Shown here one piece after another: positions 4,959-64,000 of a DNA stretch of 64,000 bases (position 1 is its first letter; each line of letters starts with the position of its first letter). The DNA is taken from the NCBI GenBank assembly GCA_905478415.1, contig CAJQIG010000001.1, positions 309,892-373,891 of the forward strand, read 5' to 3'. The stretch comes from an uncultured Patescibacteria group bacterium. Lineage in GTDB: Bacteria; Patescibacteriota; Microgenomatia; UBA1400; PJMF01. The notes under the pieces are model-generated. The model had not been told where the DNA came from, did no database searches, and saw only the letters and a program-made list of their open reading frames with translations. The position numbers and the translations under genes are program-made.

Positions 4959-7226
4959 ATGAAAAAGATTCACCTTATCCTCAACTACATACTTACCCCT
5001 CTTGTTCTAGCAGCAATTTTCTTTGTCAGCTACGTTGCCTTGTTTTCTAACGATTCAATCCAAAATGTTGCCCAAGTGCAACAACTCTATGGCCAAAATG
5101 GTATCTGGCTTCTAGACGCGCTCCTATTGATCTTAGTTGTGCCAGTCGCACTCAGACTCATGGAGATTATTACTGGTGAAGTTGGTCTCGAACGTTTTAA
5201 ACGAATTGCTGCCATTAGTATCGGCATGACTACACTTAGTTTCGCAGCTCTTCAATTTATTGGGGCAATTGCTACCTCTTCTGCAGAAGGAGCAACTGTT
5301 GTTGTAGAAATCATTCAGCAAATGGCTCACTTCGCTCAACACGGGCAGCTCGAGCAGTATGGTCTTGTGGGTATGTTAACTTCCGATGCCTCCGGTCCTT
5401 GGAACTCGAGCATCTTTCCACTGATTATTCTTATTGTTTGGTTTATCCGCCGAAAACATGTTGGTATAGAAACTAAGCAACTTCATATACCTATGACTGT
5501 CCAGTGGATTTTATACGGTCAGCAATTTCTCTTTGGACTCGACCTGCAGTACACACTTCTAGAAATTATTTTGATGGGAATCACTGGCTCAATTTTTGTA
5601 TGGGGCATGGTTAGCTTTATGGTTTCTATGTTCAAAGAAGCAGAAAAGGCTGAAGAACAAGCTGCTCAATCAGTCACTGCAATCGATACAAATAAGAAAT
5701 CAAATAGCTATTCAAAAGCTATCACTGGCATTGCCCAAAAAGCATTTACTATTTTAACATTCAACCCACTCAACAAAAAAGTTGATTCAGCTGACTATAA
5801 AATTAAACAAAAAATGGGTGGCTTTGGAAATATTGGGAAAAGTTATGTACTTATGAATGCGCTCCAACTCACCATAGCTATGACTGTGGCTATGTTCGCA
5901 TTGGTTACTGCTATCCAATTCATTGCTGTTCAATTAAAGATGAGTGATGCTGAGGCTGCGCTTTTTGGAACTGCAGGACTCACCAGTGCCCCTGAAGCAT
6001 TTGTGGCTCTAGCAGTTGGCCCTTATATAAATGCCCTCTTACTTGTAGGAAGTAACATCATTGACGGCTGGATGTCTGCTATCGGTCAGATAGTACTCCT
6101 CAGCTATGCTGAAATTGTCAGTGCTGGAGCCATCTCTTCGATTCCACTCCATCCTGCTATCCGCTTCTTAACGTTCCTCTCATGGACTCAGGGGATGATT
6201 GTTTGGGCCGGACTCGGATTGTATGCTCACCGCATTAATAAGAGTCAACACAAACGACTGATCACACTTACTACTATCGGCTTCCTCATCCTCTCTATTG
6301 TCTATTACTTTGGCGGAGCTTGGTACAGTGCTCAGGCCTTAGGTTATGGGGCCGATTATGCCAAAGAAAGCCTTGTTTTTAGAACTCTCAGTAGTATTGT
6401 CAACTTCTTTGCTGATAGCCCTGCACAACAAGTTGCCCTGACTGCAAATATTGTCGGCCTTGGAGCTCTTGTCTTTTGGTGGTCAGGCATCTCTAAAAAA
6501 CTGGGTGCAATTATGCAACCAAGCGAAGATCGAGAAATTGATAGTAGCGTTATTGAACTCAAAACTAAGATTAACTCCCGCCTCAAACGAGAAGACCAAC
6601 AAGTCATTATTGTTCTTGATACTAGTTTGGACATGGACACAGCTGGATCTTTCTTTAAAAATAAGTGGATTGACCTCGTGTTCAGACAAGCTGCAGCACT
6701 GGGATTTGTACTGGATGACGACGGACATATTCCTGTTTTCATAACTCACGATGGGACAGTTGAAAAAAGCACTCACTTATTAACTCAAAAAAACGCGGAT
6801 AATTTTATCAAAAAATATGTTGGTCGAAAAACACAAGGCACTGTCCAATATACGCCAGTGCTCAAAAAAATATATGCAGATTATCAAAATACCTTAACCA
6901 AAGATCATGATCCTGTACTAGTGCTCTTTATAACCGCTGGTGGCGGGACAGATAAACAAACCACCATGGAACTCTTTATTCAGATGGAGGAGCGCCCTCT
7001 TTTCGTTCAATTTTTAGAAATTTATGGAAATACTCCTCACAAAAACACAAGTATTCTTAAAGAAATTGCAGAGCACCCAGGTAAAAGCATTGATAACTCT
7101 GGACTCTCTTCTCTACCACTATTCCGTTTAACTGATGCAAACCAAATTGTCGAAGAAGTACTTAATGAGTACCCTGAATACTTACAAAAAGCTGTAAAAC
7201 TAAATATACTTAAAAAAGCTGCCTAA
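4959..7226 (+). CDS. polytopic membrane protein with C-terminal vWA/TerY-like domain
   Basis: About 10 predicted TM segments N-terminal; C-terminal VIIVLDTSLDMD ... FITAGGGTD resembles vWA/MIDAS-like fold. Confidence 0.5.
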   Translation: MKKIHLILNYILTPLVLAAIFFVSYVALFSNDSIQNVAQVQQLYGQNGIWLLDALLLILVVPVALRLMEIITGEVGLERFKRIAAISIGMTTLSFAALQFIGAIATSSAEGATVVVEIIQQMAHFAQHGQLEQYGLVGMLTSDASGPWNSSIFPLIILIVWFIRRKHVGIETKQLHIPMTVQWILYGQQFLFGLDLQYTLLEIILMGITGSIFVWGMVSFMVSMFKEAEKAEEQAAQSVTAIDTNKKSNSYSKAITGIAQKAFTILTFNPLNKKVDSADYKIKQKMGGFGNIGKSYVLMNALQLTIAMTVAMFALVTAIQFIAVQLKMSDAEAALFGTAGLTSAPEAFVALAVGPYINALLLVGSNIIDGWMSAIGQIVLLSYAEIVSAGAISSIPLHPAIRFLTFLSWTQGMIVWAGLGLYAHRINKSQHKRLITLTTIGFLILSIVYYFGGAWYSAQALGYGADYAKESLVFRTLSSIVNFFADSPAQQVALTANIVGLGALVFWWSGISKKLGAIMQPSEDREIDSSVIELKTKINSRLKREDQQVIIVLDTSLDMDTAGSFFKNKWIDLVFRQAAALGFVLDDDGHIPVFITHDGTVEKSTHLLTQKNADNFIKKYVGRKTQGTVQYTPVLKKIYADYQNTLTKDHDPVLVLFITAGGGTDKQTTMELFIQMEERPLFVQFLEIYGNTPHKNTSILKEIAEHPGKSIDNSGLSSLPLFRLTDANQIVEEVLNEYPEYLQKAVKLNILKKAA

Positions 7227-9329: not shown

Positions 9330-10013
9330 TCAGTCGACCCGCTGGCGCACTGTTTCAAGTATCGTATTCCTCGTCACCAGAGACCATCCATGAGACTCAG
9401 CCAGCTTTTTTAACTCATCTTGAGCTGGCTCATACAAAAAACCATGTGTGACTGCATCGAGCAAAGCTTCATCTCCAGAAGAATCGCCGAACCCGAATGA
9501 CACACTGTTTTGCTGTCTCTTGAGTAGATGAGCTATCTCTTTTGACTTTGCCGCCTCGTCAAGAATTTTTGTCACTCTCTGAGTATAAACACCATTCTTT
9601 ATTTCTATTGTTGAAGCAAAGCTCTTTACACCTAAATACTTAGCAATATGAGTCACAATTGGTTCAATCGAAGCCGAGACAATATAAACCTCAAACCCGC
9701 TCTTTTTAAGAAAAGAAAAAAGCTCAGAAACATAGGAAAATAGTTTCTGAGTTTGAAAAAATTCCTCTTGCCATTGCTTCACCTCAAGAACAGTGTGTCC
9801 GGCAACAACTTTTCCACTCAGTCGTACTGCTTCTGCAGTAGCTTGACCATAAGTAATCAGTCCTTGGCTATAATCAGCAAGGAGCGCCTCAGCCATAGCC
9901 TTATCTTCTTTTTGAATCAGCCCCCTTGGAATAGCGTATCCAAATAAGAAATCGACCATTGAGTAGCCATCATATAAAGTTTTATCTAAATCAAAAAAAG
10001 CAAGTGTGTTCAT
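9330..10013 (-). CDS. HAD-IB family hydrolase (phosphoserine phosphatase-like); start moved to internal Met
   Basis: MNTLAFFDLDKTL HAD motif I; ATG at 10013..10011 avoids a 5' overlap with the divergent gene. Confidence 0.65.
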   Translation of the reverse strand: MNTLAFFDLDKTLYDGYSMVDFLFGYAIPRGLIQKEDKAMAEALLADYSQGLITYGQATAEAVRLSGKVVAGHTVLEVKQWQEEFFQTQKLFSYVSELFSFLKKSGFEVYIVSASIEPIVTHIAKYLGVKSFASTIEIKNGVYTQRVTKILDEAAKSKEIAHLLKRQQNSVSFGFGDSSGDEALLDAVTHGFLYEPAQDELKKLAESHGWSLVTRNTILETVRQRVD

Positions 10014-33326: not shown

Positions 33327-33343
33327 AGAAATACTGTAAAATT

Positions 33344-33368
33344 GAATGTGCTTGGAACTTATTTTGTA
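33344..33368. repeat. degenerate copy of array repeat (gaatgtgcttggaacttattttgta)
   Basis: Shares tgttggaact core; gene stop TAA (33359-33361) lies inside. Confidence 0.4.
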
Positions 33369-33841
33369 TAGTATTCTCTATTTCTCTTAGCCTCATTAGT
33401 ACTCCAAGCCATGGCTTTCTGTGCATCATCTTGACTTTGCAATGGAATACTTTCCACCCATTTTAAATCTTCTGGCAATAAATGATCAAAATCTTTACCT
33501 GGCAAAATGGTATAAAAATCTCCTGGTATTTCTTCTGGGGGAAAACCCGTATTAATTAAAATCTTTAACCCAGCAGCAGAATCAGTGACGCTCGTCATTG
33601 AAATATTAGTTATCGAAACTGCACTATGACCAGTAATTTGCACTAGCCTTATCTGGTATTTAGAAAGATCAACTTTTTCAATAAGCATTTTTGCTATTTT
33701 AACTGCTTTTCTATGGCAAATATCATTATGTAAATTTTCATTTCCCAGTGCTTCTAGAATTACTGCTTTCAACTCTGTTTCTAGTTGCACTAATTCCTGC
33801 TTTGAAAAAGGGGTTTTGTCAAAACCTGATATTTCTGTCAT
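33359..33841 (-). CDS. hypothetical cargo protein 6 of repeat-delimited array
   Basis: ORF; stop overlaps degenerate repeat copy. Confidence 0.5.
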   Translation of the reverse strand: MTEISGFDKTPFSKQELVQLETELKAVILEALGNENLHNDICHRKAVKIAKMLIEKVDLSKYQIRLVQITGHSAVSITNISMTSVTDSAAGLKILINTGFPPEEIPGDFYTILPGKDFDHLLPEDLKWVESIPLQSQDDAQKAMAWSTNEAKRNREYYTK

Positions 33842-33897
33842 AAAACAAATTCTACTATTTTTATAAAAAAATATCGAACACAGATGTACAGTATCGA

Positions 33898-33927
33898 GAA
33901 TTTAGGGTGTTATTGGAACTACTCTAA
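33898..33927. repeat. array repeat copy A (gaatttagggtgttattggaactactctaa)
   Basis: About 80% identical to copies B and C over the ggaactactctaa core. Confidence 0.65.
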
Positions 33928-34379
33928 ACTGATAATGACGATTTAGTGGTATGTTTATTCCTTCTAAATCCGGTTTCTTGATCTATAATTACTGATTCTC
34001 CGTCAAGATGAATAAGTTCTATTTTATTTTTTTTAGTTGTAAGGAAATGTAAAAAATAGTGATTCGACATTTCAATAAATAATTCTAAAGAATCTTTAAA
34101 TAGTTTGGTCGACTCAACACTCATTCCAATTAACTGGTTAAAAAACAAGATAATATCTTCTGAATCATAACTGTCATCAATTTTAGTTCTTCCCGAATCT
34201 AGAACTTCCCAATTCTTACCAATATATAAAATAAGATTACCAGTTTTTTGATTCTGTTTTGAACCAAAATAAAGTGCTAACTCATTGAAAAAGACCTCAA
34301 CATGTAATAGTTCTAAATTCTCTAAATTATAAAATTCTTCTTCGATATCTAAAAATGATTCTTGTGTCATGTTATTCAA
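33924..34379 (-). CDS. hypothetical cargo protein 5 (151 aa)
   Basis: ORF; stop TAG supplied by repeat copy A. Confidence 0.5.
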   Translation of the reverse strand: MNNMTQESFLDIEEEFYNLENLELLHVEVFFNELALYFGSKQNQKTGNLILYIGKNWEVLDSGRTKIDDSYDSEDIILFFNQLIGMSVESTKLFKDSLELFIEMSNHYFLHFLTTKKNKIELIHLDGESVIIDQETGFRRNKHTTKSSLSV

Positions 34380-34430
34380 CTATACATTAAAAAATAGATA
34401 CTCATAAATACTTTATTCAAGATTTTTTTC

Positions 34431-34449
34431 ATATTAATTACTCTAAAAA
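34431..34449. repeat. degenerate array repeat copy E (ttaattactctaaaaag)
   Basis: Matches tactctaa...aaaag of copy B. Confidence 0.35.
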
Positions 34450-35456
34450 GTATTTTCGTACCACTTAAGTGCTCTAATGAGACCTTGATTACAATATTCC
34501 TGTCTGACAACCTCTTCGACATCTTTTTCAGATTTCATCCACCCTTTTAGGGGATCTATCATAGATTTTAAAATATCTTTAGCTTCCTCAATAGAAAATT
34601 TATTTTTTTCACACTCATTTTTAGAAAGACTTATCAGTTCTTCTAGCGGAACTGTCTCAAGTCTAATTCTGTCTGTAGAAGATCTTCTTATACCCCAAGG
34701 AGAAAAGAGTAAAATGCTTTTATTCGATAGTTCGGTACTCAGCACCTCATATAAAACTTTTGCCTGAATAAACGATACAGGACTTTTTCTTTCCCTCGCT
34801 TGTTTTATGGCATGAGTTGTAAAATTTCTGTGCTCTGTACGAAAGTAATCAAGGTCAAAGATCGCAACTTTATAAGGACCATGTTCTTCACCGTTAGTAA
34901 TCTCTTCTAACCAAGAAGTGCCCTTTGTTACCAAATTATAGTTTTGATATGTTTTATTTTCATCTAAAATAAGTTGATAAAAAAACGTGTCTTCAGAAGT
35001 CAGATCTTCTTGTGCTTCTAAAATTGAACCATCATCAAAATATATTTTTAGTACTTTTGATTCTTCACTTACTTCTAAGTTCTTGATTATAAGGGTAGTA
35101 TCTACCAATGTTACTAGTTCATCAGCTACCGCAAGCATATGATACTGTTCATCAATAAACTCATTCTTGAAAACGGAAATTTCTCTACCTTTAGCGTTTT
35201 TCCAACTCCATGTATCTGTTCCAATTGATAAGTGATAGTTAGCTTCATGTTTTTTTGAATATATTGAGATAAATAGTTGCTTTGTGTCTGAAGAACTATT
35301 TTGAATAGTTACTATTCTCAAGCCACTCAAATGATTATTTAACCTGGTTTGTGCCTCTTTGTAAGACAGTTTGTTTGTTTGGTAAAAATTACTCATGTAT
35401 TTATTATACAGTAAGTGTGTGAGGAAGAAGATTTGCAGATTTTCTGTCTTACTCAC
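34443..35456 (-). CDS. hypothetical cargo protein 4 (337 aa)
   Basis: ORF; stop TAG inside degenerate repeat attactctaa. Confidence 0.5.
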   Translation of the reverse strand: MSKTENLQIFFLTHLLYNKYMSNFYQTNKLSYKEAQTRLNNHLSGLRIVTIQNSSSDTKQLFISIYSKKHEANYHLSIGTDTWSWKNAKGREISVFKNEFIDEQYHMLAVADELVTLVDTTLIIKNLEVSEESKVLKIYFDDGSILEAQEDLTSEDTFFYQLILDENKTYQNYNLVTKGTSWLEEITNGEEHGPYKVAIFDLDYFRTEHRNFTTHAIKQARERKSPVSFIQAKVLYEVLSTELSNKSILLFSPWGIRRSSTDRIRLETVPLEELISLSKNECEKNKFSIEEAKDILKSMIDPLKGWMKSEKDVEEVVRQEYCNQGLIRALKWYENTF

Positions 35457-35496
35457 ATAGAATTAAATTTTGTTTAACTTTTTGTAAGAAGCAGAC

Positions 35497-35817
35497 TTAG
35501 GATCGAAAGTGGCCTTGACCACGATAGATCTCAATATCTACTCGTACATATCCCAGATTTGTTGCAAATTCCTTACGATAAAATGCTCGGTTCTGCCCGG
35601 CACTTGCGCCACCTACAGCCCCATCAATGGCTCGTTTTGCGGCATCGATTGCATTACGAAAATCTTGACGATTTCGCAATGAACTATAATAACGGCACGA
35701 TTCCTCGTAAACCTCTTCCAACAATTGCTTGCCTTCTGAGCGTGAACAAGAACCACCGTTATAACTTCGGCTGGCAATATTCTCGCTGCGTACTTGAACT
35801 TGGAATGCTACACTCAT
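35497..35817 (-). CDS. hypothetical cargo protein 3 (106 aa; Gly/Ala/Arg-rich, two CxxC-like pairs)
   Basis: ORF; the antisense track ORF 35559..35819 is judged spurious. Confidence 0.45.
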   Translation of the reverse strand: MSVAFQVQVRSENIASRSYNGGSCSRSEGKQLLEEVYEESCRYYSSLRNRQDFRNAIDAAKRAIDGAVGGASAGQNRAFYRKEFATNLGYVRVDIEIYRGQGHFRS

Positions 35818-36000
35818 GATTTTTACCCCTTGTTTTGAGTGAGGGACAAAATCAACTGCAAATCTTCTTCACTTAAAGAACAGCTATTATCGAGAACTTC
35901 ATACGCAGATGAAGTCCACTAAAAATAACTACGAGGATTATAACATGATTAATATATAACTTAGTATCAAAAGATATCAAAAACTATTGTTTAAAAAACC

Positions 36001-36040
36001 TCGATGTCGGGGGTTTAGAACGATGTTGGAACTACTCTAA
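36001..36040. repeat. array repeat copy B (tcgatgtcgggggtttagaacgatgttggaactactctaa)
   Basis: Read directly; contains internal direct repeat gatgtYgg and terminal inverted repeat ttaga/tctaa. Confidence 0.7.
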
Positions 36041-36355
36041 GTAAAAAGCGGGGTTAACACATCTGACGCTTGAAAAAACGGTTGACTCTACTACTCCATC
36101 AGAAGTTCCTATTAAATTTGTGCCAACAGTACCAGTACGATTAGAGAATACTCGAACATTATCTGGCAATGATGTAACCATCTCATCAAATTTAGACTTC
36201 GGAATCTCACTCAATATCCTGATTCCTATTTTGTCTGGCTTGTCAATTCTCTCATAAAGGTAATTCCCAAAAGGAGAAGCATCTATAATTACTTTTAACT
36301 CATGATATCGAGCTTCTGTTTCATGCAAGTCTATCTCTTCCATACTGCCTTTCAA
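36032..36355 (-). CDS. hypothetical cargo protein 2 (107 aa)
   Basis: ORF; RBS gaaagg; last codons YLE* encoded by repeat copy B. Confidence 0.5.
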   Translation of the reverse strand: MKGSMEEIDLHETEARYHELKVIIDASPFGNYLYERIDKPDKIGIRILSEIPKSKFDEMVTSLPDNVRVFSNRTGTVGTNLIGTSDGVVESTVFSSVRCVNPAFYLE

Positions 36356-36432
36356 TTCTAAAAAGTTATTAATCTTTGAGACAACTCAAATATAACATAT
36401 CAGCATAAAAAAATATCGCCATTTTTTTCTAT

Positions 36433-36470
36433 GCGTCGGGTGTTTGGGACGATGTTGGAACTTTAGTTAA
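36433..36470. repeat. array repeat copy C (gcgtcgggtgtttgggacgatgttggaactttagttaa)
   Basis: 27/29 match to copy B over tcggg..ggacgatgttggaact. Confidence 0.7.
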
Positions 36471-36475
36471 AGAAA

Positions 36476-36904
36476 CTATTCAGTAATAACAGGTGGCCTC
36501 GATACATAGTTTGTATGCCTCCACCAATCAGGAATAAACTTTAAAAAGAGTGTTTTGTCACTTTCATATGATTTAGATTGGGGAAACTTCTTGTAGTGTA
36601 TTGCCGTAATCTTTTCAATCTCTGAGCTGGTTTCAACTAGATAGATTGTTCCACTCAACTGCAGTGTCTGCTTGAGTTCTTCAGTTGTTCCAATAACGAG
36701 CGAAGCATGACACTGTTTAGCATCTGTAAGTTTTTCAACTTTTTTTGTACTACTTTCTGTAAAGAAATATATTTCAAGTGGATCTGGATTACAAGAATAC
36801 AACATGGCAGCTGCATGAACCTTTTCCAAAGGTAATGATGTTGCCAAAACGCTTACGCGTTGTCGTAACAAAAAACTTAATACTTCTTTCGGCAGTGTTT
36901 TCAT
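36476..36904 (-). CDS. pyridoxamine 5'-phosphate oxidase-like (FMN-binding split barrel) family protein
   Basis: N-terminal EVLSFLLRQRVSVLAT...LYSCNPD... pattern typical of the PNPOx-like family. Confidence 0.45.
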   Translation of the reverse strand: MKTLPKEVLSFLLRQRVSVLATSLPLEKVHAAAMLYSCNPDPLEIYFFTESSTKKVEKLTDAKQCHASLVIGTTEELKQTLQLSGTIYLVETSSEIEKITAIHYKKFPQSKSYESDKTLFLKFIPDWWRHTNYVSRPPVITE

Positions 36905-36907
36905 ATC

Positions 36908-37297
36908 TCAAATCACTTTCACAGCTTTTGCATTACGCATCTTTGCATCTGCATACTCAAAAAGCACACCCTGTTTTGACGTAGAATTATTTCTAACAGC
37001 ATGTGAGAGGTTTGGTGGAATTTCAAAAAGTAGAACGGTATCCCCTGACTGCATAGTAACTTCATGTGTAACATCCTCTGCATCTACCCAAAATAAAGAT
37101 AAATCATCCATTGTCACAAACCACTCAGTCCGAGGGTGCGTATGATTACCTCCATAACTGCCAGGAGCTAAAAGAATAATCTGCTGATCTTTAATAAGGT
37201 TTTTCTCAATTGGAAGATCATCTGTGTTTAATACCCAGACCTTTGGATCTTGTTTTTGGTATGAATAATTAAGTTTGGTTATCTTGGGTTCTAACAT
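36908..37297 (-). CDS. cupin domain protein; start moved to internal Met to avoid tRNA overlap
   Basis: GGNHTHPRTEWFV cupin motif 1 and GDTVLLFEIPPNLSHAV motif 2; the track ORF extends over the tRNA gene. Confidence 0.55.
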   Translation of the reverse strand: MLEPKITKLNYSYQKQDPKVWVLNTDDLPIEKNLIKDQQIILLAPGSYGGNHTHPRTEWFVTMDDLSLFWVDAEDVTHEVTMQSGDTVLLFEIPPNLSHAVRNNSTSKQGVLFEYADAKMRNAKAVKVI

Positions 37298-37347
37298 AGA
37301 GCTATCATAGCAGATCACAGGTATTTGCAGAGAATAAAATCGAGGTG

Positions 37348-37421
37348 TCGGGTTGACTGGACTCGAACCAGCGACCTCACGCACCCCATGCGCGCACTCT
37401 AGCCATCTGAGCTACAACCCG
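37348..37421 (-). tRNA. tRNA-Pro (anticodon GGG)
   Basis: Manual cloverleaf: acceptor CGGGTTG/CAACCCG, D-arm GCTC..GAGT, anticodon stem CGCGC/GCGTG, loop AUGGGGU (T33, GGG, G37), T-arm GCTGG-TTCGAGT-CCAGT, discriminator A; 74 nt, CCA not encoded. Confidence 0.8.
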
Positions 37422-37585: not shown

Positions 37586-38644
37586 ATGGCTAGAACAAAG
37601 AAGACTGACACACCAACAAAAGATGGTAAATCAGTTGAACAAAACGCTAAATTACAAGCCGTTAACATTGCAATGCAACAAATTGAAAAAGAGTTTGGCA
37701 AAGGCTCAGTCATGAAAATGGGTGACTCACTCAAAAACATGACCATCATCCCAGCCGTCTCAACTGGCTCCCTCTCGCTCAATCTGGCGTTAGGTGTTGG
37801 TGGCTTTCCAAAAGGAAGAATCGTTGAAATTTACGGACCAGAGGCATCAGGTAAAACCACTATTTGTCTGCACGCTATCGCTGCAACTCAAAAACAAGGT
37901 GGAGTAGCTGCCTTTATTGACGTTGAACATGCTCTTGATCCAACCAGAGCTGAAAAAATCGGTGTTAACCTCGATGATATGATCATTTCTCAACCAGATT
38001 ACGGTGAACAGGCCCTCGAAATTGCCGAAACGCTTATCCGATCGGGTGGTGTGGACATTGTAGTTATCGATTCAGTTGCAGCCTTAGTCCCTAAGTCAGA
38101 AATTGAAGGCGAGATGGGCGATCACCAAATGGGTACTCAAGCACGACTCATGTCTCAAGCAATGAGAAAACTGACTGCAGCTATCAGTAAAACAAAAACC
38201 CTGGTTATCTTCACCAACCAGATTCGACACAAAATTGGAGTCATGTTTGGAAGTCCAGAAACAACTACTGGTGGTAATGCCCTCAAGTTTTATGCTTCGC
38301 AAAGACTCGATATTAGAAAAATTGGCAACATCCAAGAAGGTGATCAGATTGTTGGTAGCAGACACAGAGTCAAAGTTAAGAAAAATAAATTAGCTCCACC
38401 ATTTAGAGTAGCTGAGTTTGATATGGACGAGAATGGTGTTTCTATGACTGGAGACGTGGTCGACATTGGAGTCAGTGAAGGTGTCATAGAAAAGGCAGGT
38501 AGTTTCTATAAATACGATGGTAATGTGCTGGCACAAGGACGAGAGGCCACTAAGAAACATTTTGATGCAAATCCTGATTTCATGAAGAAAATTCAAAAGG
38601 AAATCTGGGCTAAAATCAAAGAAAAGAACCAAATTTCAGATTAA
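37586..38644 (+). CDS. recA: recombinase RecA
   Basis: GPEASGKTT Walker A, full-length conservation, AGGAG RBS. Confidence 0.95.
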
Positions 38645-57508: not shown

Positions 57509-58630
57509 ATGAAGCGTACTAGCATTTTGTTCCTATTTTTAATCTTATCAACTATCGCGTTAACAGCATGTGACTGGCGTTTACGGTCACCAATCGTCAA
57601 GGAAACGCCGGCCCCCTATGTTGTAACTCCCGAACCCACCCCAGTGGTGGTGAAAGAATACTGGAGTCCTACTGAAGGGGCCACGTGGAACCATTTAACT
57701 GAAGACGCAGATTACCAAGAATATGAAAATTTGGTAATTCCTGTCTGTGGCCCAGTCGGATACCCAGATGAAGCAGAAGTTAAAGTTATCCGTGGTGGTC
57801 AAGATGGTAAGGATGTAAGCGTGTTTTTCAACTGTAATCTGTTCCGCACACACGTGCTGGGACTGCCTACATTGGCTGAAATTTACGAAAGCACTCCTGA
57901 ACCAATTGACAACAGCATCGAAGCTGAAGCCAACTCCTGCCCCGAAGACGCCGATATGATCGAAACCGCACTGGCCGATGGCTATGTGCACTTCGTGTTT
58001 GATGGCGAATCTGTTTCGTGGGACCCCTGCAAGTGGCACGGGTACACGGAAGACGGGTTGACGCTGGAAAATGCTGATTGGCAAGCAACCGTTGTGTTGC
58101 ATGATGGCGACGAGCAATCTGACCCCATCGTGTGGCGCGGCCCAGCTGAAATTGACGGCAACGTCAGCTTCACCCTCCGCTATATCGGCGAGGGCAGCGG
58201 CTATGCTGCTGACCACTGGGTCAACAATGACTGCCAGCTCCTGATTCAAGAATACGCATTCGGATTGCGCCGAGAGAACTGGGATTATCCCACTTTCGAA
58301 GGCAACGTTACCTGTGATGCTCTTGATGACCTTTTGGCCAACGAAGTTGACGTCAACGACCTCCCCAACGCCTACACAATCGCAGCCGTTTTCGGTGGCG
58401 AGTCCCCCATGTGGACAGTGAAAGATTGGGAAGGCGGCGCGCATTTGTTTGCCGCCGGCGAACATGCTGATGGCAGCATGAACTTCATCAAGCTTGAGGT
58501 CCCCAGCTGGGCCGACAGCTGTGAGATTGATTATTGGAATGGCGAGACAGGCGCTGCTGACAAGCTGATGCCCGGCGACCCCGGCATCTCCTTGAACGAA
58601 GCGTCCCTGCACTGTCACGCGGACCAATAA
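57509..58630 (+). CDS. acidic lipoprotein of unknown function, GC-rich (compositionally foreign)
   Basis: GGAGGA RBS 9 nt upstream of ATG 57509; MKRTSILFLFLILSTIALTAC lipobox; the antisense 310-aa track ORF is treated as a high-GC artefact. Confidence 0.6.
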   Translation: MKRTSILFLFLILSTIALTACDWRLRSPIVKETPAPYVVTPEPTPVVVKEYWSPTEGATWNHLTEDADYQEYENLVIPVCGPVGYPDEAEVKVIRGGQDGKDVSVFFNCNLFRTHVLGLPTLAEIYESTPEPIDNSIEAEANSCPEDADMIETALADGYVHFVFDGESVSWDPCKWHGYTEDGLTLENADWQATVVLHDGDEQSDPIVWRGPAEIDGNVSFTLRYIGEGSGYAADHWVNNDCQLLIQEYAFGLRRENWDYPTFEGNVTCDALDDLLANEVDVNDLPNAYTIAAVFGGESPMWTVKDWEGGAHLFAAGEHADGSMNFIKLEVPSWADSCEIDYWNGETGAADKLMPGDPGISLNEASLHCHADQ

Positions 58631-58652
58631 ATAATTTTTTCTGTATAACCTG

Positions 58653-58683
58653 TTGCCCCGACGCTTTTAAAGTGTCGGGGCAA
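58653..58683 (+). terminator. 10-bp GC-rich stem hairpin downstream of lipoprotein gene
   Basis: ttgccccgac-gcttttaaagt-gtcggggcaa; weak U-tract. Confidence 0.5.
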
Positions 58684-58711
58684 TACCAGAGTTCATAATT
58701 ACTTTGTAATT

Positions 58712-60055
58712 GTGGCCTGTGGTATGCCAAAAAACATAAAAAACATACTGGCAAAATATGACACTACGGAAACGTTGTTAATCATATCTTTATATCCCCA
58801 CAAGGGTGAGACCTACTCATCTGGGACCACTGGGGTGGCTTCTTATACCAAGAATGTAGTTAAAAATATGAACCGCAACACGGTTGTTATTGCTGACTAC
58901 AAAAAACAAAGCAGTCACTATGTCGAAAAAGACACATTAGTACTCAGACACTTCAAACATGGCAAAATGTCTATGTGGACTGAGTTACTCCAAAGTGTAA
59001 CTCAATTTAAGAATGCAAAAAATGTACTTATTCAGTTTGATTTCTCTATGTATGGAAGTATGCTGGTATCAGCAACACTACTTCCATTCTTAGCTGTTCT
59101 TAAGTCACTAGGATATAAGACTCACGTTGTTTCTCATCATGTAGTCATGGATGTTGGAAAACTTTCTGGACACATGGGACTGACGAACTCATTCCGCGAC
59201 TCAATCAAGACTCGTGCATTTAACGTAGCCTTTCACTCGTTCTATAGAGCGCTTGGCTTAGTTAGTAACTCTGTTATTGTTCTTGAAGATATCCTCAAAG
59301 AGAGACTGTCTAAATATATTCCTGCTAAAAAAATAATTGCTATTCCTCATGCTGTCGACACTAATTTAGAAAAAATTTCTAAAGCAGAGGCGCGTAAAAA
59401 ACTTGGAATTGCTGCTTCTGAAAAAGTGGTGCTCTTCTTCGGTTTTGTAAACTGGTTTAAAGGTGCAGATATCTTTGCAAAAAACTTTGCAAAGACTCAG
59501 AAGCTTCTTGGAAAAAAAGCTCGCTTTATTATTGCTGGAGGTGAAAGTATTACCTTATCTTCAAAAGAATACTATAAAGAATTTTATAATGGCGTTGTAA
59601 ATACAACCCAAAATTCTTCTTCTGTAGATATCACTGGATATGTTCCTCAAGAAAAAATTGTTGAATACTTCTCTGCTGCGGATTTAATTGTCTTTCCGTA
59701 CAGAGAGTTTATGTGTGCTTCTGGAGTACTATCATTAGCTTTCTCATATAAAAAACCATTTATTGTTTCTGACAAATTAGAACCAATGTTAACTGCACCT
59801 GATTTCTCAGAAGCTATGAAAGACTTTGGCCTAACTACTAGCGATTTATCGTTCGAACTTTCAAAAGAATCAATGCTTAAACAAACAACAAAAGTCTTAA
59901 GAAATGGTCTAAAACGTAAAATGTCACTCATGGGAGCTCAAATTAGAAAACAACGTAGTTTTCAAAATACGGCTAAGACCTATGAACGAGCTATATTTGC
60001 ACCAAGTTCAAAGCTTCATAAATCGCCTAGAGTCAGGTATGCTTATGGTGCATGA
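58712..60055 (+). CDS. glycosyltransferase family 1 (GT-B; GT4-like)
   Basis: C-terminal pattern GGE...FPYREFMCASG resembling the EX7E region. Confidence 0.55.
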   Translation: MACGMPKNIKNILAKYDTTETLLIISLYPHKGETYSSGTTGVASYTKNVVKNMNRNTVVIADYKKQSSHYVEKDTLVLRHFKHGKMSMWTELLQSVTQFKNAKNVLIQFDFSMYGSMLVSATLLPFLAVLKSLGYKTHVVSHHVVMDVGKLSGHMGLTNSFRDSIKTRAFNVAFHSFYRALGLVSNSVIVLEDILKERLSKYIPAKKIIAIPHAVDTNLEKISKAEARKKLGIAASEKVVLFFGFVNWFKGADIFAKNFAKTQKLLGKKARFIIAGGESITLSSKEYYKEFYNGVVNTTQNSSSVDITGYVPQEKIVEYFSAADLIVFPYREFMCASGVLSLAFSYKKPFIVSDKLEPMLTAPDFSEAMKDFGLTTSDLSFELSKESMLKQTTKVLRNGLKRKMSLMGAQIRKQRSFQNTAKTYERAIFAPSSKLHKSPRVRYAYGA

Positions 60056-61773
60056 AAAAAATAGCACCCTGGTTACTTTTAGCTGCTCTTAGCATCTTTC
60101 TTTGTTACTATTTTTTATTTAGAGCTCAAGTACAGCTTGGAGGTGATATCGTAGAGTATTACGGTATTACTGAATCAGTAAAAAATCACTTTAGTTTTGA
60201 ACTTACAGTAGAAGATAGAACTAATCTGGAACAAGTACTGCATAAAGCTTACTTTGAAGATCCTGGCTATTACATATCAGGCACTGATCAAAAACGCTAT
60301 CCTGTTCACTTTATCTTTTACTCACTGCTTGCACTACCATTCCGGCTACTTCTTGAGGCACTTAATCTCAATCCACTCCGATCACTTTGGTTACTAAATA
60401 TTTTTTCATACCTTACTATGATTGGGATTATCTGGGCTAAATATATTCATAAGAGTGGCCATCGTATCGCCTTTTTACTTCTTACATTTATATCTCCGCT
60501 TATGTCCTTTTTTATATGGCCTGGACCAGATCTCTTTGTCATTACGTTACTCACTGTCTCCTTGTTTGCCTTTGCTAAAAAAGAATATCTTTTTGCAATA
60601 CTTTTGAGCACAGTTGCCTCATGGCACAGTCAACCAGTACTGATTGTGACATTCTTCTTTCTCCTCTCCTATGTTGTCATTGGCCATACTCAACAAAAAA
60701 AGTTTGCAATTACTACTAAGATCTTAGCTACTGCTTTTGGTGTTGGCTTACTATCACTAATTCCCTACCTTTATAACTACCTTGCATTTGGTGTTTTAAC
60801 ACCGTGGACACTTCTTCAAGATGGATGGACTACAGTACGTGGTTTCGGATTACACAACGCTTCGGTACAAAAATTTTACGAACAATTTTTTGACCTTAAT
60901 ATTGGTATTTTTTGGTATTCTCCAATACTTTTTATAGCTTCACTGTTTTATTTTATGAGGAATCATACAAAAAACACACTGCTCAATTACTTTTATCTAG
61001 CTATTTTTTGTCTCACACTACTCTTTTATCAAACAAATCCTGGCTGGCATTATGGAACATCTGGTTTCGGTCCTGGTCGGCATTCAATTATTGTTTTAGC
61101 GTTACTTTTTTTCATTACCACTCAACTTATAGCTTCACAAACTAAAAAATTTACGATTGGATTTATTGCGTTTCTGCTAGTGATTCAAGGAAGTATTTTG
61201 TCTAAAAATAATTTTCTCGAGCCAAAACTAGAGAATACTCTCCATAATAGTTTTTTTGCTTCTTTCATTCTCGATTCTCTGCCAGAACTCTATAACCCTA
61301 CCCCTGAGATTTTTGTTGATAGAACAAACCATACAGATAATACTCAACTAGAGTCAGCCTATTATATGAAAGATGGAATCTGCAAAAAAGCCTTTGTACT
61401 GTACTCAGACCTCCCCTTCTTAAAAGAACACTGTCCTAATAATGCAAAACTCTCTGCCACACTCATGTTCGAAGACCCATTTAAAAGAAGCGCTAGCTAT
61501 CCAAGAACTATCATTTTAGACGAAGCCACTTTCTGGCCTGAACCAAGAGCTTGTGACAATAACTTTAAGCATCAATATTTTGTTTGTCCAAAAACAACAG
61601 ATGATTTTATGTCCGAGACGGGAATATCAGACGAACTTAGAATCACCACACTTGCTGAGTTTCCATCTCCTGGCATATGGAAACTCAGCAAAGGAGCCCC
61701 AATTAAAGTTACTGTTCCTCCCGGATACATTTTAGACTACACTGCAACAGATGGTATCTATGTCAACTTTTAA
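60052..61773 (+). CDS. polytopic membrane protein, GT-C-like (possible arabinofuranosyl/mannosyl-transferase)
   Basis: More than 10 TM; 4-nt overlap with preceding gene. Confidence 0.4.
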   Translation: MKKIAPWLLLAALSIFLCYYFLFRAQVQLGGDIVEYYGITESVKNHFSFELTVEDRTNLEQVLHKAYFEDPGYYISGTDQKRYPVHFIFYSLLALPFRLLLEALNLNPLRSLWLLNIFSYLTMIGIIWAKYIHKSGHRIAFLLLTFISPLMSFFIWPGPDLFVITLLTVSLFAFAKKEYLFAILLSTVASWHSQPVLIVTFFFLLSYVVIGHTQQKKFAITTKILATAFGVGLLSLIPYLYNYLAFGVLTPWTLLQDGWTTVRGFGLHNASVQKFYEQFFDLNIGIFWYSPILFIASLFYFMRNHTKNTLLNYFYLAIFCLTLLFYQTNPGWHYGTSGFGPGRHSIIVLALLFFITTQLIASQTKKFTIGFIAFLLVIQGSILSKNNFLEPKLENTLHNSFFASFILDSLPELYNPTPEIFVDRTNHTDNTQLESAYYMKDGICKKAFVLYSDLPFLKEHCPNNAKLSATLMFEDPFKRSASYPRTIILDEATFWPEPRACDNNFKHQYFVCPKTTDDFMSETGISDELRITTLAEFPSPGIWKLSKGAPIKVTVPPGYILDYTATDGIYVNF

Positions 61774-64000
61774 AAAAATTGTTACCCATATTCACTTCGC
61801 TCCAGTCTCATTACTTGTCAGTATTTTAGTAATTTTCATTATTTCTCAATTTCCAAGTACTACAAACTTGATTGGATGGGATGCAGTAAGTCCAGAACTC
61901 AACTACTCTGCAAACTTTAGTCGGGCGCTTAATTCTAGCTGGCAAGAAAACTATGGATTAGGAGCTTTAATAGGGCACGGGGTAGGAACAACCTTTATAC
62001 ATACTGGGGTAGTATACCTAATTGACCTGTTTGCACCTAGCCATGCAGTAAGAGCAATTTTTCATTTTTTATCTTTCAGTGTTGGAGCAGTAGGAATGTA
62101 TTTTCTTTCCTACCACATTCTTTCTTCTTTAAAAAATGATGTATCTAAACAACTACTTACATTTATTTCATTACTAGCAGCACTCTTTTATACATTCAAC
62201 TTAGGAACAACACAGCTTTTTTATCTACCATTAGAAGCGTTTAGTGTCCATTTTGCTGGACTTCCATGGGCACTTTTATTATTACTGAGATACATACATA
62301 GTCCAAGTAAAAAGAACTTATTCATACTATTTATTGTAAATATTTTCTTTTCGATGCAAGGCTTCATCCCATCACTTTTTGTCGCATATCTCTTTTCAAT
62401 TGGAGTGTATACCACAACTTTTTTTCTGCTCAATAAAAACAAAAAAAAGAATGGCACACATATCTTATTTGCTTTATTTATCATCTTATTAGCGAATAGC
62501 TATTGGCTAACATCATTCACTTTTTATACTTTGTTTAGAAACCAAAATTTTCTCGAAGCATATAATAACTTGAGTTCAACTGAACAATTTATACAGCAAA
62601 GCATGAAGTATGGTGATGTACTAAACGTTGGATTGTTAAAAAGTTTTTATCTTGATACTTCAGTAGCTGACACTCAAGTTTTTCAAAGCTGGAACCAATT
62701 CTTTCAAAATTCTGCTATTCTCTTTTTTTACTTCCTTTTTTTCTTAGTTAGTGTATTAGGACTCATTGTTTCTACTTTTAAACGGTATAGAAAAATAATG
62801 CTTCCACTTTCAAGTGTCTATCTTTTTTTCTTTTTAGGACTGACTACAGCAACCCCCCCTTTTTCTTTTGCTTCTAAACTTTTACAACTACTCCCCCTCT
62901 ATAAACAAGCTTTTAGAACTACATTCACTAAGCTTGGTACTGGTATGGCCCTTAGTTACAGCATATTTTTAGGTCTTGGCTTACTGTTTCTTTTTTCTAA
63001 AAAGAGCAAATTCTCTCATGCCTTTTTATGGTTTCTTTTAGCTATAAGTACCACAGTACTCGTTCTTCCTCATTTTATTTTTCCTGCCTTCTACGAGAAT
63101 GAATCAATACGTATTCCACAGGCATACAGAGATGTCACTAACGAATTTAATCAAAAGGGATATGCTCACATCGCGATGCTCCCCGCAGATTGTTCAGAAG
63201 GTTGGTATAACTACAACTGGAACTATGTTGGTTCTGGATTTCTTTGGTATGGTGTTAAACAACCAATTATTGAACGTTTTTCTGATGTGTGGAGTGCTAA
63301 CAATGAACAATACTTTTGGGAACTCTCGTCTGCACTACACGCAAATAACACAGAGCAACTTTCAAATATTTTTATGAAGTATGACATAAAATGGTTACTC
63401 ATTGATGAAAACCTTGAACACTGCAGTAATTTTAATGGTTTTTCTCAACAAAAGCTTCTCATAGATCGCTTAACAAGCTCAAATCAATTCCAACTTATTT
63501 TTGAAACAGATAAAGGAGTAGAAAAACCGATAAGAATCCTTGAAAATACTCAGCATAGTAATTATAATTTTATTTCAAGTTCATCTGTTACAAAAGTTTC
63601 TACTACTCGCACCTGGATGTTAGAGGATACTCTCTTTGCATCAAAAAAATCTTATGTTTCTAACCCAACAGAAATACTTAGCGATGAATATTTTGTCTTC
63701 CCAAGTATTTTTTCTCAAAGAGGAAATGCAGTATCTTCTTCCCAAATAGAAAATACTAACGCTACTCTCACTTTTATTTCTCCAGAAAAAACAAATACAG
63801 ATAGACAAATTAACTTAGTGGTTTCATATGCTGAGGACCCTATTCCATTCTCAACTACTATTGAACAGTTGAATGATCTTTATTCATTACAAATGAATCT
63901 CGACTTTCCGCTAGTTGTTATTGGAAGTCAAGAATTTGACGTCGATACAACAATTAATCTGGGGGAACTTTCCATTGATGAAACAACAGATATTGCACTA
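61760..64000 (+). CDS. large polytopic membrane protein, 3'-partial (no stop before window end); overlaps preceding gene by 14 nt
   Basis: Manual reading from ATG 61760 (MSTFKKIVTHIHF...) found no in-frame stop to 64000; absent from the ORF track presumably because it has no stop. Confidence 0.55.
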   Translation, partial: MSTFKKIVTHIHFAPVSLLVSILVIFIISQFPSTTNLIGWDAVSPELNYSANFSRALNSSWQENYGLGALIGHGVGTTFIHTGVVYLIDLFAPSHAVRAIFHFLSFSVGAVGMYFLSYHILSSLKNDVSKQLLTFISLLAALFYTFNLGTTQLFYLPLEAFSVHFAGLPWALLLLLRYIHSPSKKNLFILFIVNIFFSMQGFIPSLFVAYLFSIGVYTTTFFLLNKNKKKNGTHILFALFIILLANSYWLTSFTFYTLFRNQNFLEAYNNLSSTEQFIQQSMKYGDVLNVGLLKSFYLDTSVADTQVFQSWNQFFQNSAILFFYFLFFLVSVLGLIVSTFKRYRKIMLPLSSVYLFFFLGLTTATPPFSFASKLLQLLPLYKQAFRTTFTKLGTGMALSYSIFLGLGLLFLFSKKSKFSHAFLWFLLAISTTVLVLPHFIFPAFYENESIRIPQAYRDVTNEFNQKGYAHIAMLPADCSEGWYNYNWNYVGSGFLWYGVKQPIIERFSDVWSANNEQYFWELSSALHANNTEQLSNIFMKYDIKWLLIDENLEHCSNFNGFSQQKLLIDRLTSSNQFQLIFETDKGVEKPIRILENTQHSNYNFISSSSVTKVSTTRTWMLEDTLFASKKSYVSNPTEILSDEYFVFPSIFSQRGNAVSSSQIENTNATLTFISPEKTNTDRQINLVVSYAEDPIPFSTTIEQLNDLYSLQMNLDFPLVVIGSQEFDVDTTINLGELSIDETTDIAL

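Follow-up and report, generated by a model that had tools for sequence, protein, structure and literature searches.

The stretch of DNA analysed here (64 kb in length, hereafter the window, to which all unprefixed coordinates refer) belongs to the tiny 'Pacebacteria'-like genome, W, of a marine member of the Patescibacteria (candidate phyla radiation, CPR) and contains an array of small genes and short direct repeats downstream of a tRNA-Pro(GGG) gene. We propose that site-specific insertions, stacked at the 3' end of the tRNA by a large serine recombinase (LSR), have made this region an accretion island. This full account is held with moderate confidence, and the identification of the repeats as recombination scars or sites with high confidence. 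The insertion hotspot is real and of a known general kind, in a phylum with few such elements described, and a serine recombinase is probably responsible for it. In five species, the repeat is confined to the island, the cargo between its copies has turned over, the junction with the tRNA is exact, and in one strain an LSR gene is located at this junction; from these observations, we infer the action of the LSR on the repeat and the origin of the units that contain no recombinase. In the W genome, the array is apparently a fossil that is no longer active, because the 64 kb contain no recombinase, all contigs of the population have an identical array, and the repeat copies decay outward from the tRNA.

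Seven minus-strand genes are located downstream of the tRNA, and the gene calls are the same in public assemblies. An initial annotation of this DNA, made from the sequence alone, had correctly placed these genes directly 3' of tRNA-Pro on the tRNA strand; it counted six of them, the cupin gene at 36908-37297 having been missed. It had also found no recognisable domain in any gene, which does not hold for the cupin and PNPOx genes, since both exceed the Pfam gathering threshold. Its impression of an AT-rich region is borne out: the GC content of 33340-37346 is 33.9% versus 40.1% for the whole window, which places the region in the lowest 1.3% of windows of equal size. The features, listed from the tRNA outward, are as follows:

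37347..37421, minus strand: tRNA-Pro(GGG) (ARAGORN; Rfam, 55 bits)
36908..37297, minus strand: cupin gene, 129 aa, unit 1, adjoining the tRNA (Pfam Cupin_2, PF07883, 27.9 bits, 1.9e-6)
36476..36904, minus strand: gene of a PNPOx-like flavin mononucleotide (FMN)-binding protein, 142 aa, unit 1 (Pfam PNPOx_N, PF01243, 32.4 bits, 1.4e-7)
36434..36465, minus strand: repeat copy C, TAAAGTTCCAACATCGTCCCAAACACCCGACG, one mismatch to the 29-nt cross-species core
36032..36355, minus strand: c107, 103-107 aa, unit 2, without a known domain, flanked by two repeats at a spacing of 429 nt
36005..36036, minus strand: repeat copy B, three mismatches to the core, overlapping the c107 stop codon
35497..35817, minus strand: c106, 106 aa, unit 3, leading the conserved c106+c337 pair, of which a homologous pair is found in locus L109
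34443..35396, minus strand: c337, 317 aa from the called ATG, unit 3, member of a very small protein family
33924..34370, minus strand: c151, 148 aa, unit 3, no known domain
33892..33923, minus strand: repeat copy A, decayed, nine mismatches to the 29-nt core (nhmmer E = 2e-7), overlapping the c151 stop codon
33359..33841, minus strand: c160, 160 aa, no known domain and no homolog at the loci of relatives
33332..33363, minus strand: possible last remnant E, AATAAGTTCCAAG..., 20 mismatches in 29 positions of the core (nhmmer E = 0.37 in the island alone, not significant)

The resulting layout is (cupin, PNPOx), C, (c107), B, (c106, c337, c151), A, (c160), with one to three genes per unit; the earlier description of one gene per module is thus wrong for two of the four units. 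The last gene, c160, represents either the oldest unit or a piece of the ancestral flank. The recA gene (37586-38644) and rny are divergent from the tRNA. The closest matches of RecA among reference genomes are CPR or 'Pacebacteria'-like metagenome-assembled genomes with 76-83% identity.

Copies A, B and C are solid direct repeats of one orientation. Identity is 89% between copies B and C over 28 nt and 76% between copies A and B over 34 nt, and the 28-nt pattern shared by B and C has zero matches in shuffled sequence. The number of mismatches to the core climbs with distance from the tRNA in W (C 1, B 3, A 9, E 20). The initial annotation had reported five copies in one orientation, which is true of A, B and C. 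The supposed copy D (34435-34450) corresponds to the 3' end of the c337 gene, which is conserved in its L109 homolog; E has in common with the repeat only AAGTTCCAA and is not significant within the island. The cross-species consensus of the repeat comprises approximately 30 nt, AAAAGTTCCAACATCGTCCCAAACACCCGACA, with sharp edges on both sides. The string AAGTTCCAAYATCG could serve to search for possible further copies next to other tRNAs.

The tRNA-Pro(GGG)-recA-rny gene order is widespread in the group, and the DNA downstream of the tRNA is different in each relative. The island was compared in W, L097/L082 (one lineage), L091, L094 (with its strain variants L095 and L096) and L105, whose RecA proteins are 89-91% identical. 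L082 was found by a metagenome scan with a degenerate repeat pattern, which gave only fragments identical to the window and this one relative; L091, L094, L097 and L105 were obtained by look-ups of close RecA proteins. Significant matches to the repeat profile occur only in the tRNA-Pro-proximal island, in W, L097/L082, L091, L094/L095 and L105. All copies lie on the tRNA strand between the tRNA and a conserved NRAMP-like/uvrD flank, and the neighbouring genes face either direction. The profile finds no copy in 80 more distant loci, and the relatives with RecA identity of 83% or less (L002-L008 and L019) keep the tRNA-recA neighbourhood with the repeat absent. No match to the full repeat pattern was found in viral contigs; the single match to its left arm there, inside a GC-rich phage tail-fibre gene, was attributed to chance.

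An all-versus-all comparison of the five islands indicated that the block of about 30 nt is the sole DNA common to all of them, with 90-100% identity; for scale, the recA DNA of W and L082 is 78% identical. The cargo is unlike between the species, and only the cupin and PNPOx genes recur, in different positions: in W they adjoin the tRNA, in L097 four genes and two repeats separate them from it, and in L094 they are far distal. The cupin is 83% identical to its L097 counterpart and 57% identical to the L094 copy, and the PNPOx counterpart of L097 is also 83% identical. An alpha/beta hydrolase is common to W and L091. Common ancestry of c160 and a 139-aa gene of L091 was considered, and none was detected. 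Presence or absence of units is polymorphic among the relatives: the five species differ, and L094, L095 and L096 vary despite identical RecA. The comparison of related genomes suggested in the initial annotation therefore shows modules that are not invariant between species, together with an invariant population of W, and its reading of the locus as tandem integrations targeted to the tRNA, or as an array of cassettes, holds in essence, given the same repeat in the islands of five species, different cargo and divergence at the tRNA 3' end.

Several further differences between the relatives can be noted. In L001, L101-L103 and L104 (RecA 83-88% identical), recA directly adjoins DUF2130 and uvrD genes; neither tRNA-Pro(GGG) nor the island was found in the recA upstream region of L001, L101 and L104, and in these lineages (L001, L101-L103 and L104) the tRNA and island were apparently lost, or relocated, as one. 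L095 (14-737) differs from L094 (8533-8745) in an IS1595-family transposase that splits a 70-aa cassette gene, the strains being otherwise 100% identical.

The position of the junction can be determined to the nucleotide. The 14 aligned tRNA-Pro loci (the window and 13 relatives) diverge right after the tRNA sequence ...CAACCCGACA, and each repeat copy diverges right after ...CCCGACA, so that the tRNA and repeat both end in CCCGACA. Since they share this core at the point of divergence, the exchange must have occurred at the core. We propose the 3' end of tRNA-Pro, ...GGTTCGAGTCCAGTCAACCCGAC with the following A at position 37346, as the candidate attB-type left half-site and insertion point. 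L097 (9715-9749) and L105 (5562-5595) have a common 35-nt sequence directly after the tRNA end despite their different first cargo genes; it holds a perfect small palindrome, CATTGAAATATCAATG, and possibly represents an ancestral tRNA-downstream arm or a terminator.

A plain partial copy of the tRNA is an unlikely description of the repeat: gapped local alignments between them are individually non-significant (p = 0.06-0.2), and the repeat is 5 nt longer than the corresponding part of the tRNA. Its relation to the tRNA becomes clear only from the end-anchored comparison, in which 12 of the 17 terminal bases match tRNA-Pro (P about 7e-4) and 8 of 17 match tRNA-Ser, and from the existence of a tRNA-Ser counterpart, described below. 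The outer GTTC motif starts 28-29 nt from the junction in the repeats (Pro 28, Ser 29) versus 23-24 nt in the tRNAs (Pro 23, Ser 24). In serine integrases, the motif bound by the zinc-ribbon domain (ZD) sits 5 bp further out in the half-sites of attP than in those of attB (Rutherford et al., PMC3783163). The 5-nt shift of GTTC is consistent with this attP-versus-attB rule as a correspondence of sequences, and the repeat can be read as a putative P-type left half-site with the core, and the tRNA end as a putative B-type left half-site.

It is very improbable that the repeat is an element of gene expression, such as a terminator, an operator or an RNA motif of the 3' untranslated region, in an island that varies for unrelated reasons. 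The copies in W do coincide with stop codons, and some of them are followed by T-runs or AT-rich hairpins. However, when both strands of copies B and C were folded as DNA, no significant single-strand hairpin emerged (z = -0.8 to -1.3), and the sole stronger fold (copy A, plus strand) involves flanking sequence. A promoter and terminator scan gave counts not above those of shuffled sequence and called none of the repeat copies a terminator. The Rfam scan matched only the tRNA; the repeat matches no family and is not seen as tRNA-like. In addition, the orientation of the repeat follows the tRNA, with copies in L097 and L105 located upstream of genes or antisense to them, no genome fragment examined has the repeat at more than one locus, and the repeat ends in the same core as the tRNA.

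The recombinase is indicated by the strain variant L096, which encodes the same RecA protein as L094. The two are 100% identical over all 1,350 shared nt, from recA through the tRNA and up to one base past it. In L094, CAGTATATTTTTC... is the sequence directly after the tRNA, while in L096 a convergent LSR gene with the Recombinase and Zn_ribbon_recom domains (the C-terminal half of an LSR) is inserted exactly at this tRNA-end point. The L004 locus contains a complete LSR at the same position with all three domains (Resolvase, Recombinase and zinc ribbon). Homologs of the L096 LSR are rare (16 clusters among 5.8 billion), and those with a usable context, L098 and L099, read into the 3' end of tRNA-Ser.

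The L099 locus combines the LSR and the repeat in the following order: tRNA-Ser(GGA), a 3.4-kb LSR element with a split LSR gene, repeat r2, a one-gene unit (260 aa) and repeat r1. The copy after the one-gene unit, r1, is significant (nhmmer E = 1e-4), and r2, at the inferred far boundary of the LSR element, is a weak candidate copy (nhmmer E = 0.075). The left arm of both copies, AAAA(G/A)TTCCAATATCGTCCC, is also that of the tRNA-Pro repeats. After this arm, r1 has ATCTGCCCCGCCA, which mimics the end of tRNA-Ser, ATCTCCTCCGCCA; in the end-anchored comparison, r1 matches tRNA-Ser in 15 of 17 positions, and the non-cognate pairs match in 8-9 of 17. Thus, a new recombination system, which the initial annotation had considered, is not needed here: an LSR is found at the exact site in L096, and a homologous one at tRNA-Ser of L099 together with the same repeat arm.

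In four independent loci, the LSR open reading frame (ORF) is convergent with the tRNA, overlaps its 3' end and stops within the tRNA or a little past it, so that the attachment site and the C-terminal codons of the integrase overlap. These ORFs are:

3-779 of L096: LSR ORF at the tRNA end
14-1309 of L098: LSR ORF at the tRNA end
3844-4626 of L099: LSR ORF at the tRNA end
4229-5854 of L004: LSR ORF at the tRNA end

The sequence TTCAATATC is common to the P' arms of three of these four LSR loci.

The repeats could instead be attachment scars of classical islands with a tyrosine integrase, or of another recombinase acting at tRNA-Pro, the LSR elements being unrelated visitors; we regard this as unlikely. 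In general, tRNA-targeting islands mostly use tyrosine integrases (PMC4383910), and the common core of 8-9 nt (A(A/C)CCCGACA) exceeds the 2 nt needed by an LSR. Furthermore, in L005 an exact direct duplicate, about 20 nt long, of the tRNA-Pro 3' end (AGTCCGACATCCCCGACA) is found at about 5545-5563, approximately 55 nt downstream of the tRNA (5630-5704). It looks like a scar of an excised or nearly wholly deleted insertion, and a 20-nt exact duplication of this kind is typical of tyrosine integrases. Against this explanation, no tyrosine recombinase was found in the window or among the called genes of the relatives' islands (a subset of which was scanned with Pfam). The repeat does not look like a partial tRNA copy, given its length and its 12 matches in 17 terminal bases, the 5-nt shift of the motif fits the geometry of LSR sites, and the same left arm and the same LSR family occur together at a different tRNA in L099.

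According to the LSR-based account, small integrative elements would recombine with the last bases of the tRNA at the CCCGACA core, driven most probably by the LSR family seen at tRNA 3' ends in other Patescibacteria-like genomes. Each new insertion would shift the older DNA further from the tRNA and would leave a P-type half-site with the core, the repeat AAAAGTTCCAACATCGTCCCAAACACCCGACA of about 30 nt, at its far junction. The predicted layout, tRNA, newest unit, P-type half-site with core, older unit, P-type half-site with core, matches the observed one. The units of one to three genes without a recombinase may be leftovers after loss of the recombinase part, or they may have been left behind on its solo excision, as in the staphylococcal chromosome cassette (SCC). 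In such a step, the LSR module would excise alone, leaving the adjacent cargo unit in place, and might pick up resident units through a more distal repeat. For L096, the link between the LSR and the repeat predicts a far junction of AAAAGTTCCAACATCGTCCCAAACA(C/G)CCGACA followed by CAGTATATTTTTC..., as after the L094 tRNA.

A number of observations weigh against this account. As the initial annotation had stated, there is no recombinase in the 64-kb window (ORFs of at least 150 aa were inspected by eye, and ten unidentified ORFs were searched with Pfam), and no fragment of an LSR pseudogene was found in any of the five arrays or in the whole window. An integrase is absent from the window and the five arrays; L096 (a strain variant), L004, L098 and L099 are the only loci that have one. 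The link between the LSR and the repeat comes from L099, with another tRNA and another organism, as the L096 contig ends before the far junction; of the two L099 copies, r2 is only marginally significant and shows no mimic of the tRNA end in the ungapped alignment (6/17). To the right of the array repeats, the sequences are unrelated and lack the P' arm of the LSR elements; the internal junctions are therefore not full attP sites. The repeat alignment reveals a block of about 30 nt with no second arm and no dyad symmetry. Quasi-symmetric half-sites around a central dinucleotide were not found at the array repeats; an approximately symmetric outer motif was seen, in a by-eye comparison, only in the P' arms of the LSR-bearing L096 and L099. 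The gradient of decay is non-monotonic in L094 and L097. All 16 contigs of the W population (identical RecA) carry the same array, with no direct sign of activity. Finally, units of 86-430 nt between well-kept repeats (L091, L097, L094 and W) are awkward for pure decay; among these tiny or empty units are one of 281 nt in L097, which has a 72-aa ORF, one of 332 nt in L094 and one of 86 nt in L091.

Simple decay of complete elements would have required removal of the recombinase precisely up to the junction, and it does not explain three features: the arrays free of LSR, the missing P' arm and the near-perfect repeats around very small units. We infer that a process similar to that of SCC would explain all three, and the L099 layout fits it.

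The same features invite another explanation, an active integron-like cassette system operated by a serine recombinase, although we consider it rather doubtful. Here, units of one to three genes without a recombinase, carrying the ~30-nt P-type site only, would be excised as circles, and a recombinase encoded elsewhere or present transiently would insert these circles at the tRNA end or at resident repeats. In an equally tentative form of this idea, the repeat would be the single site of mini-cassettes that are captured, deposited or picked up at the tRNA-Pro end by a transient tRNA-targeting LSR module. A cassette system is suggested by the tiny or empty units between near-perfect repeats in four species, by the 97-100% conservation of the repeat across species whose remaining island DNA is unalignable, and by the lack of LSR remnants or P' arms in any array. 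The fixed orientation of the repeat with free orientation of the genes also fits, as does the L099 locus, where the LSR module is followed by a separate one-gene unit with its own terminal repeat. On the other hand, no cassette was found at two array positions with its repeat attached. The cupin and PNPOx genes of L097/L082 have no flanking repeat, and not even a decayed one was found in L082; the c106+c337 pair of L109 is located among housekeeping genes with neither repeat nor tRNA. Moreover, the array is invariant in 16 contigs, its distal copies are decaying, and canonical LSRs need both half-sites (PMC3783163). Stacked insertion by LSR elements remains the reading that we prefer.

The functions of the cargo were searched for with several methods. 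For the five proteins c107, c106, c337, c151 and c160, there was no Pfam match above the cut-off, no significant PHROG or NCBIfam match and no PDB sequence match. The only PADLOC match, of c160 to Cas5f, is weak and short (E = 0.0016, 16 bits) and was discounted; with no other match of the cargo to known defence families in PADLOC, the defence or immunity role offered in the initial annotation finds no evidence in these searches or in the structure of c337. The c337 family is very small, with 7 matches among 1.84 billion representatives and 14 clusters. An AlphaFold2 model of c337 has a mean pLDDT (predicted local distance difference test) of 62 and is confident only for residues 1-170, a beta-rich N-terminal domain; no convincing PDB fold match to it was found (template modelling score, TM, 0.21 or less).

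The c106 and c337 genes form a conserved two-gene unit, which is also present in L109 (9583-10939), another CPR genome, where the c337 protein is about 57% identical. The pair is flanked there by NusB/ACP/RNase III/S16 genes on one side and recG on the other, and neither a tRNA nor a repeat is present. An inverted repeat flanks the c106 ORF in the window (35424-35438 and 35856-35870); its 15-nt core is exactly complementary (GAAGAAGATTTGCAG and CTGCAAATCTTCTTC), and its imperfect arms extend to about 38 nt each. Both arms are kept at the nucleotide level in L109 (about 9530-9565 and 9945-9985). This inverted repeat could delimit an invertible segment or form a long-range RNA stem, e.g., an RNase III site, between c106 and c337.

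Elsewhere in the window, a second AT-rich stretch (59000-64000, 32-37% GC) contains glycosyltransferase-like and large membrane-protein genes. Just before it, the 1-kb bin 58001-59000 stands out by its high GC content of 49.8% and contains a 414-aa unassigned ORF with a long antisense ORF.

Little has been described on gene acquisition by CPR bacteria, whose genomes are about 1 Mb in size with few recognisable mobile elements. The locus gives a defined hotspot beside recA, with a site of about 30 nt in at least five species and a candidate recombinase family reading into tRNA 3' ends. It provides a searchable signature for accessory genes and integrative elements in CPR metagenome bins, and a compact candidate attB/attP pair with its integrase might become a genetic tool for organisms that have few of them. 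If the units without a recombinase were indeed mobilisable, they would constitute a cassette system run by a serine recombinase, an integron analogue in the ultra-small genomes of Patescibacteria. In a limited literature search, no description of LSR elements at Patescibacteria tRNA ends was found.

Among the known systems, integrons and clusters of attC sites lacking integron-integrases (CALINs) also consist of short, mostly one-gene units, each closed by a site-like repeat of the same orientation, with content that varies between relatives. The attC sites are imperfect palindromes of 55-140 bp (R''-L''...L'-R') that form single-stranded hairpins. In contrast, the repeat described here has about 30 nt with neither dyad nor hairpin, the first site is the tRNA end, and there is no IntI, attI or Pc promoter. 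The array was therefore not assigned to this class, as it fails the test for an attC hairpin and second arm, no IntI was found in the window, and no recombinase other than LSRs was seen in the relatives' islands.

As in tRNA-targeted accretion islands, the variable DNA starts exactly at the tRNA 3' end; an integrase encoded in the element was not found in the window. In the tycheposon islands of Prochlorococcus, which are adjacent to tRNAs, new insertions displace the older ones inward, and degenerate remnants of att sites are retained (10.1101/2020.12.28.424599; PMC4383910). The W locus resembles these and other Islander-type islands, with their streamlined marine genome, tRNA-adjacent position, scattered att remnants and content unlike between close relatives. 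Tyrosine recombinases predominate in those islands, where the scars are genuine partial copies of the tRNA. Here, in contrast, the scar combines an element-type arm with a sequence that only approximates the tRNA end, the recombinase observed is an LSR with an ORF running into the tRNA, and there are no remnants of replication or integrase genes.

The geometry of the site recalls the Listeria A118/LI integrases, in which the P-type half-site is approximately 5 bp longer than the B-type one, with the outer motif shifted by 5 bp (PMC3783163). A short common core and an integrase gene adjoining the att site are further similarities. The differences are that only one conserved arm is present at the array junctions, that the target is a tRNA 3' end, and that the Patescibacteria site is known from sequence alone.

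The closest system in architecture is the SCC. Composite islands of this type in staphylococci (SCCmec and pseudo-SCC) are formed by serial insertion at the 3' end of rlmH/orfX, carried out by the CcrAB and CcrC LSRs. The target here is a tRNA end and not rlmH/orfX, and the units have 0.3-2 kb versus several to tens of kb in SCC; the likeness is architectural only. Serial insertion at the 3' end of a conserved gene is common to SCC and to the account proposed for the W locus; in both cases, the units are split by short direct repeats of the same orientation, many units contain no recombinase, and the recombinase gene is carried by only some of the strains or units.

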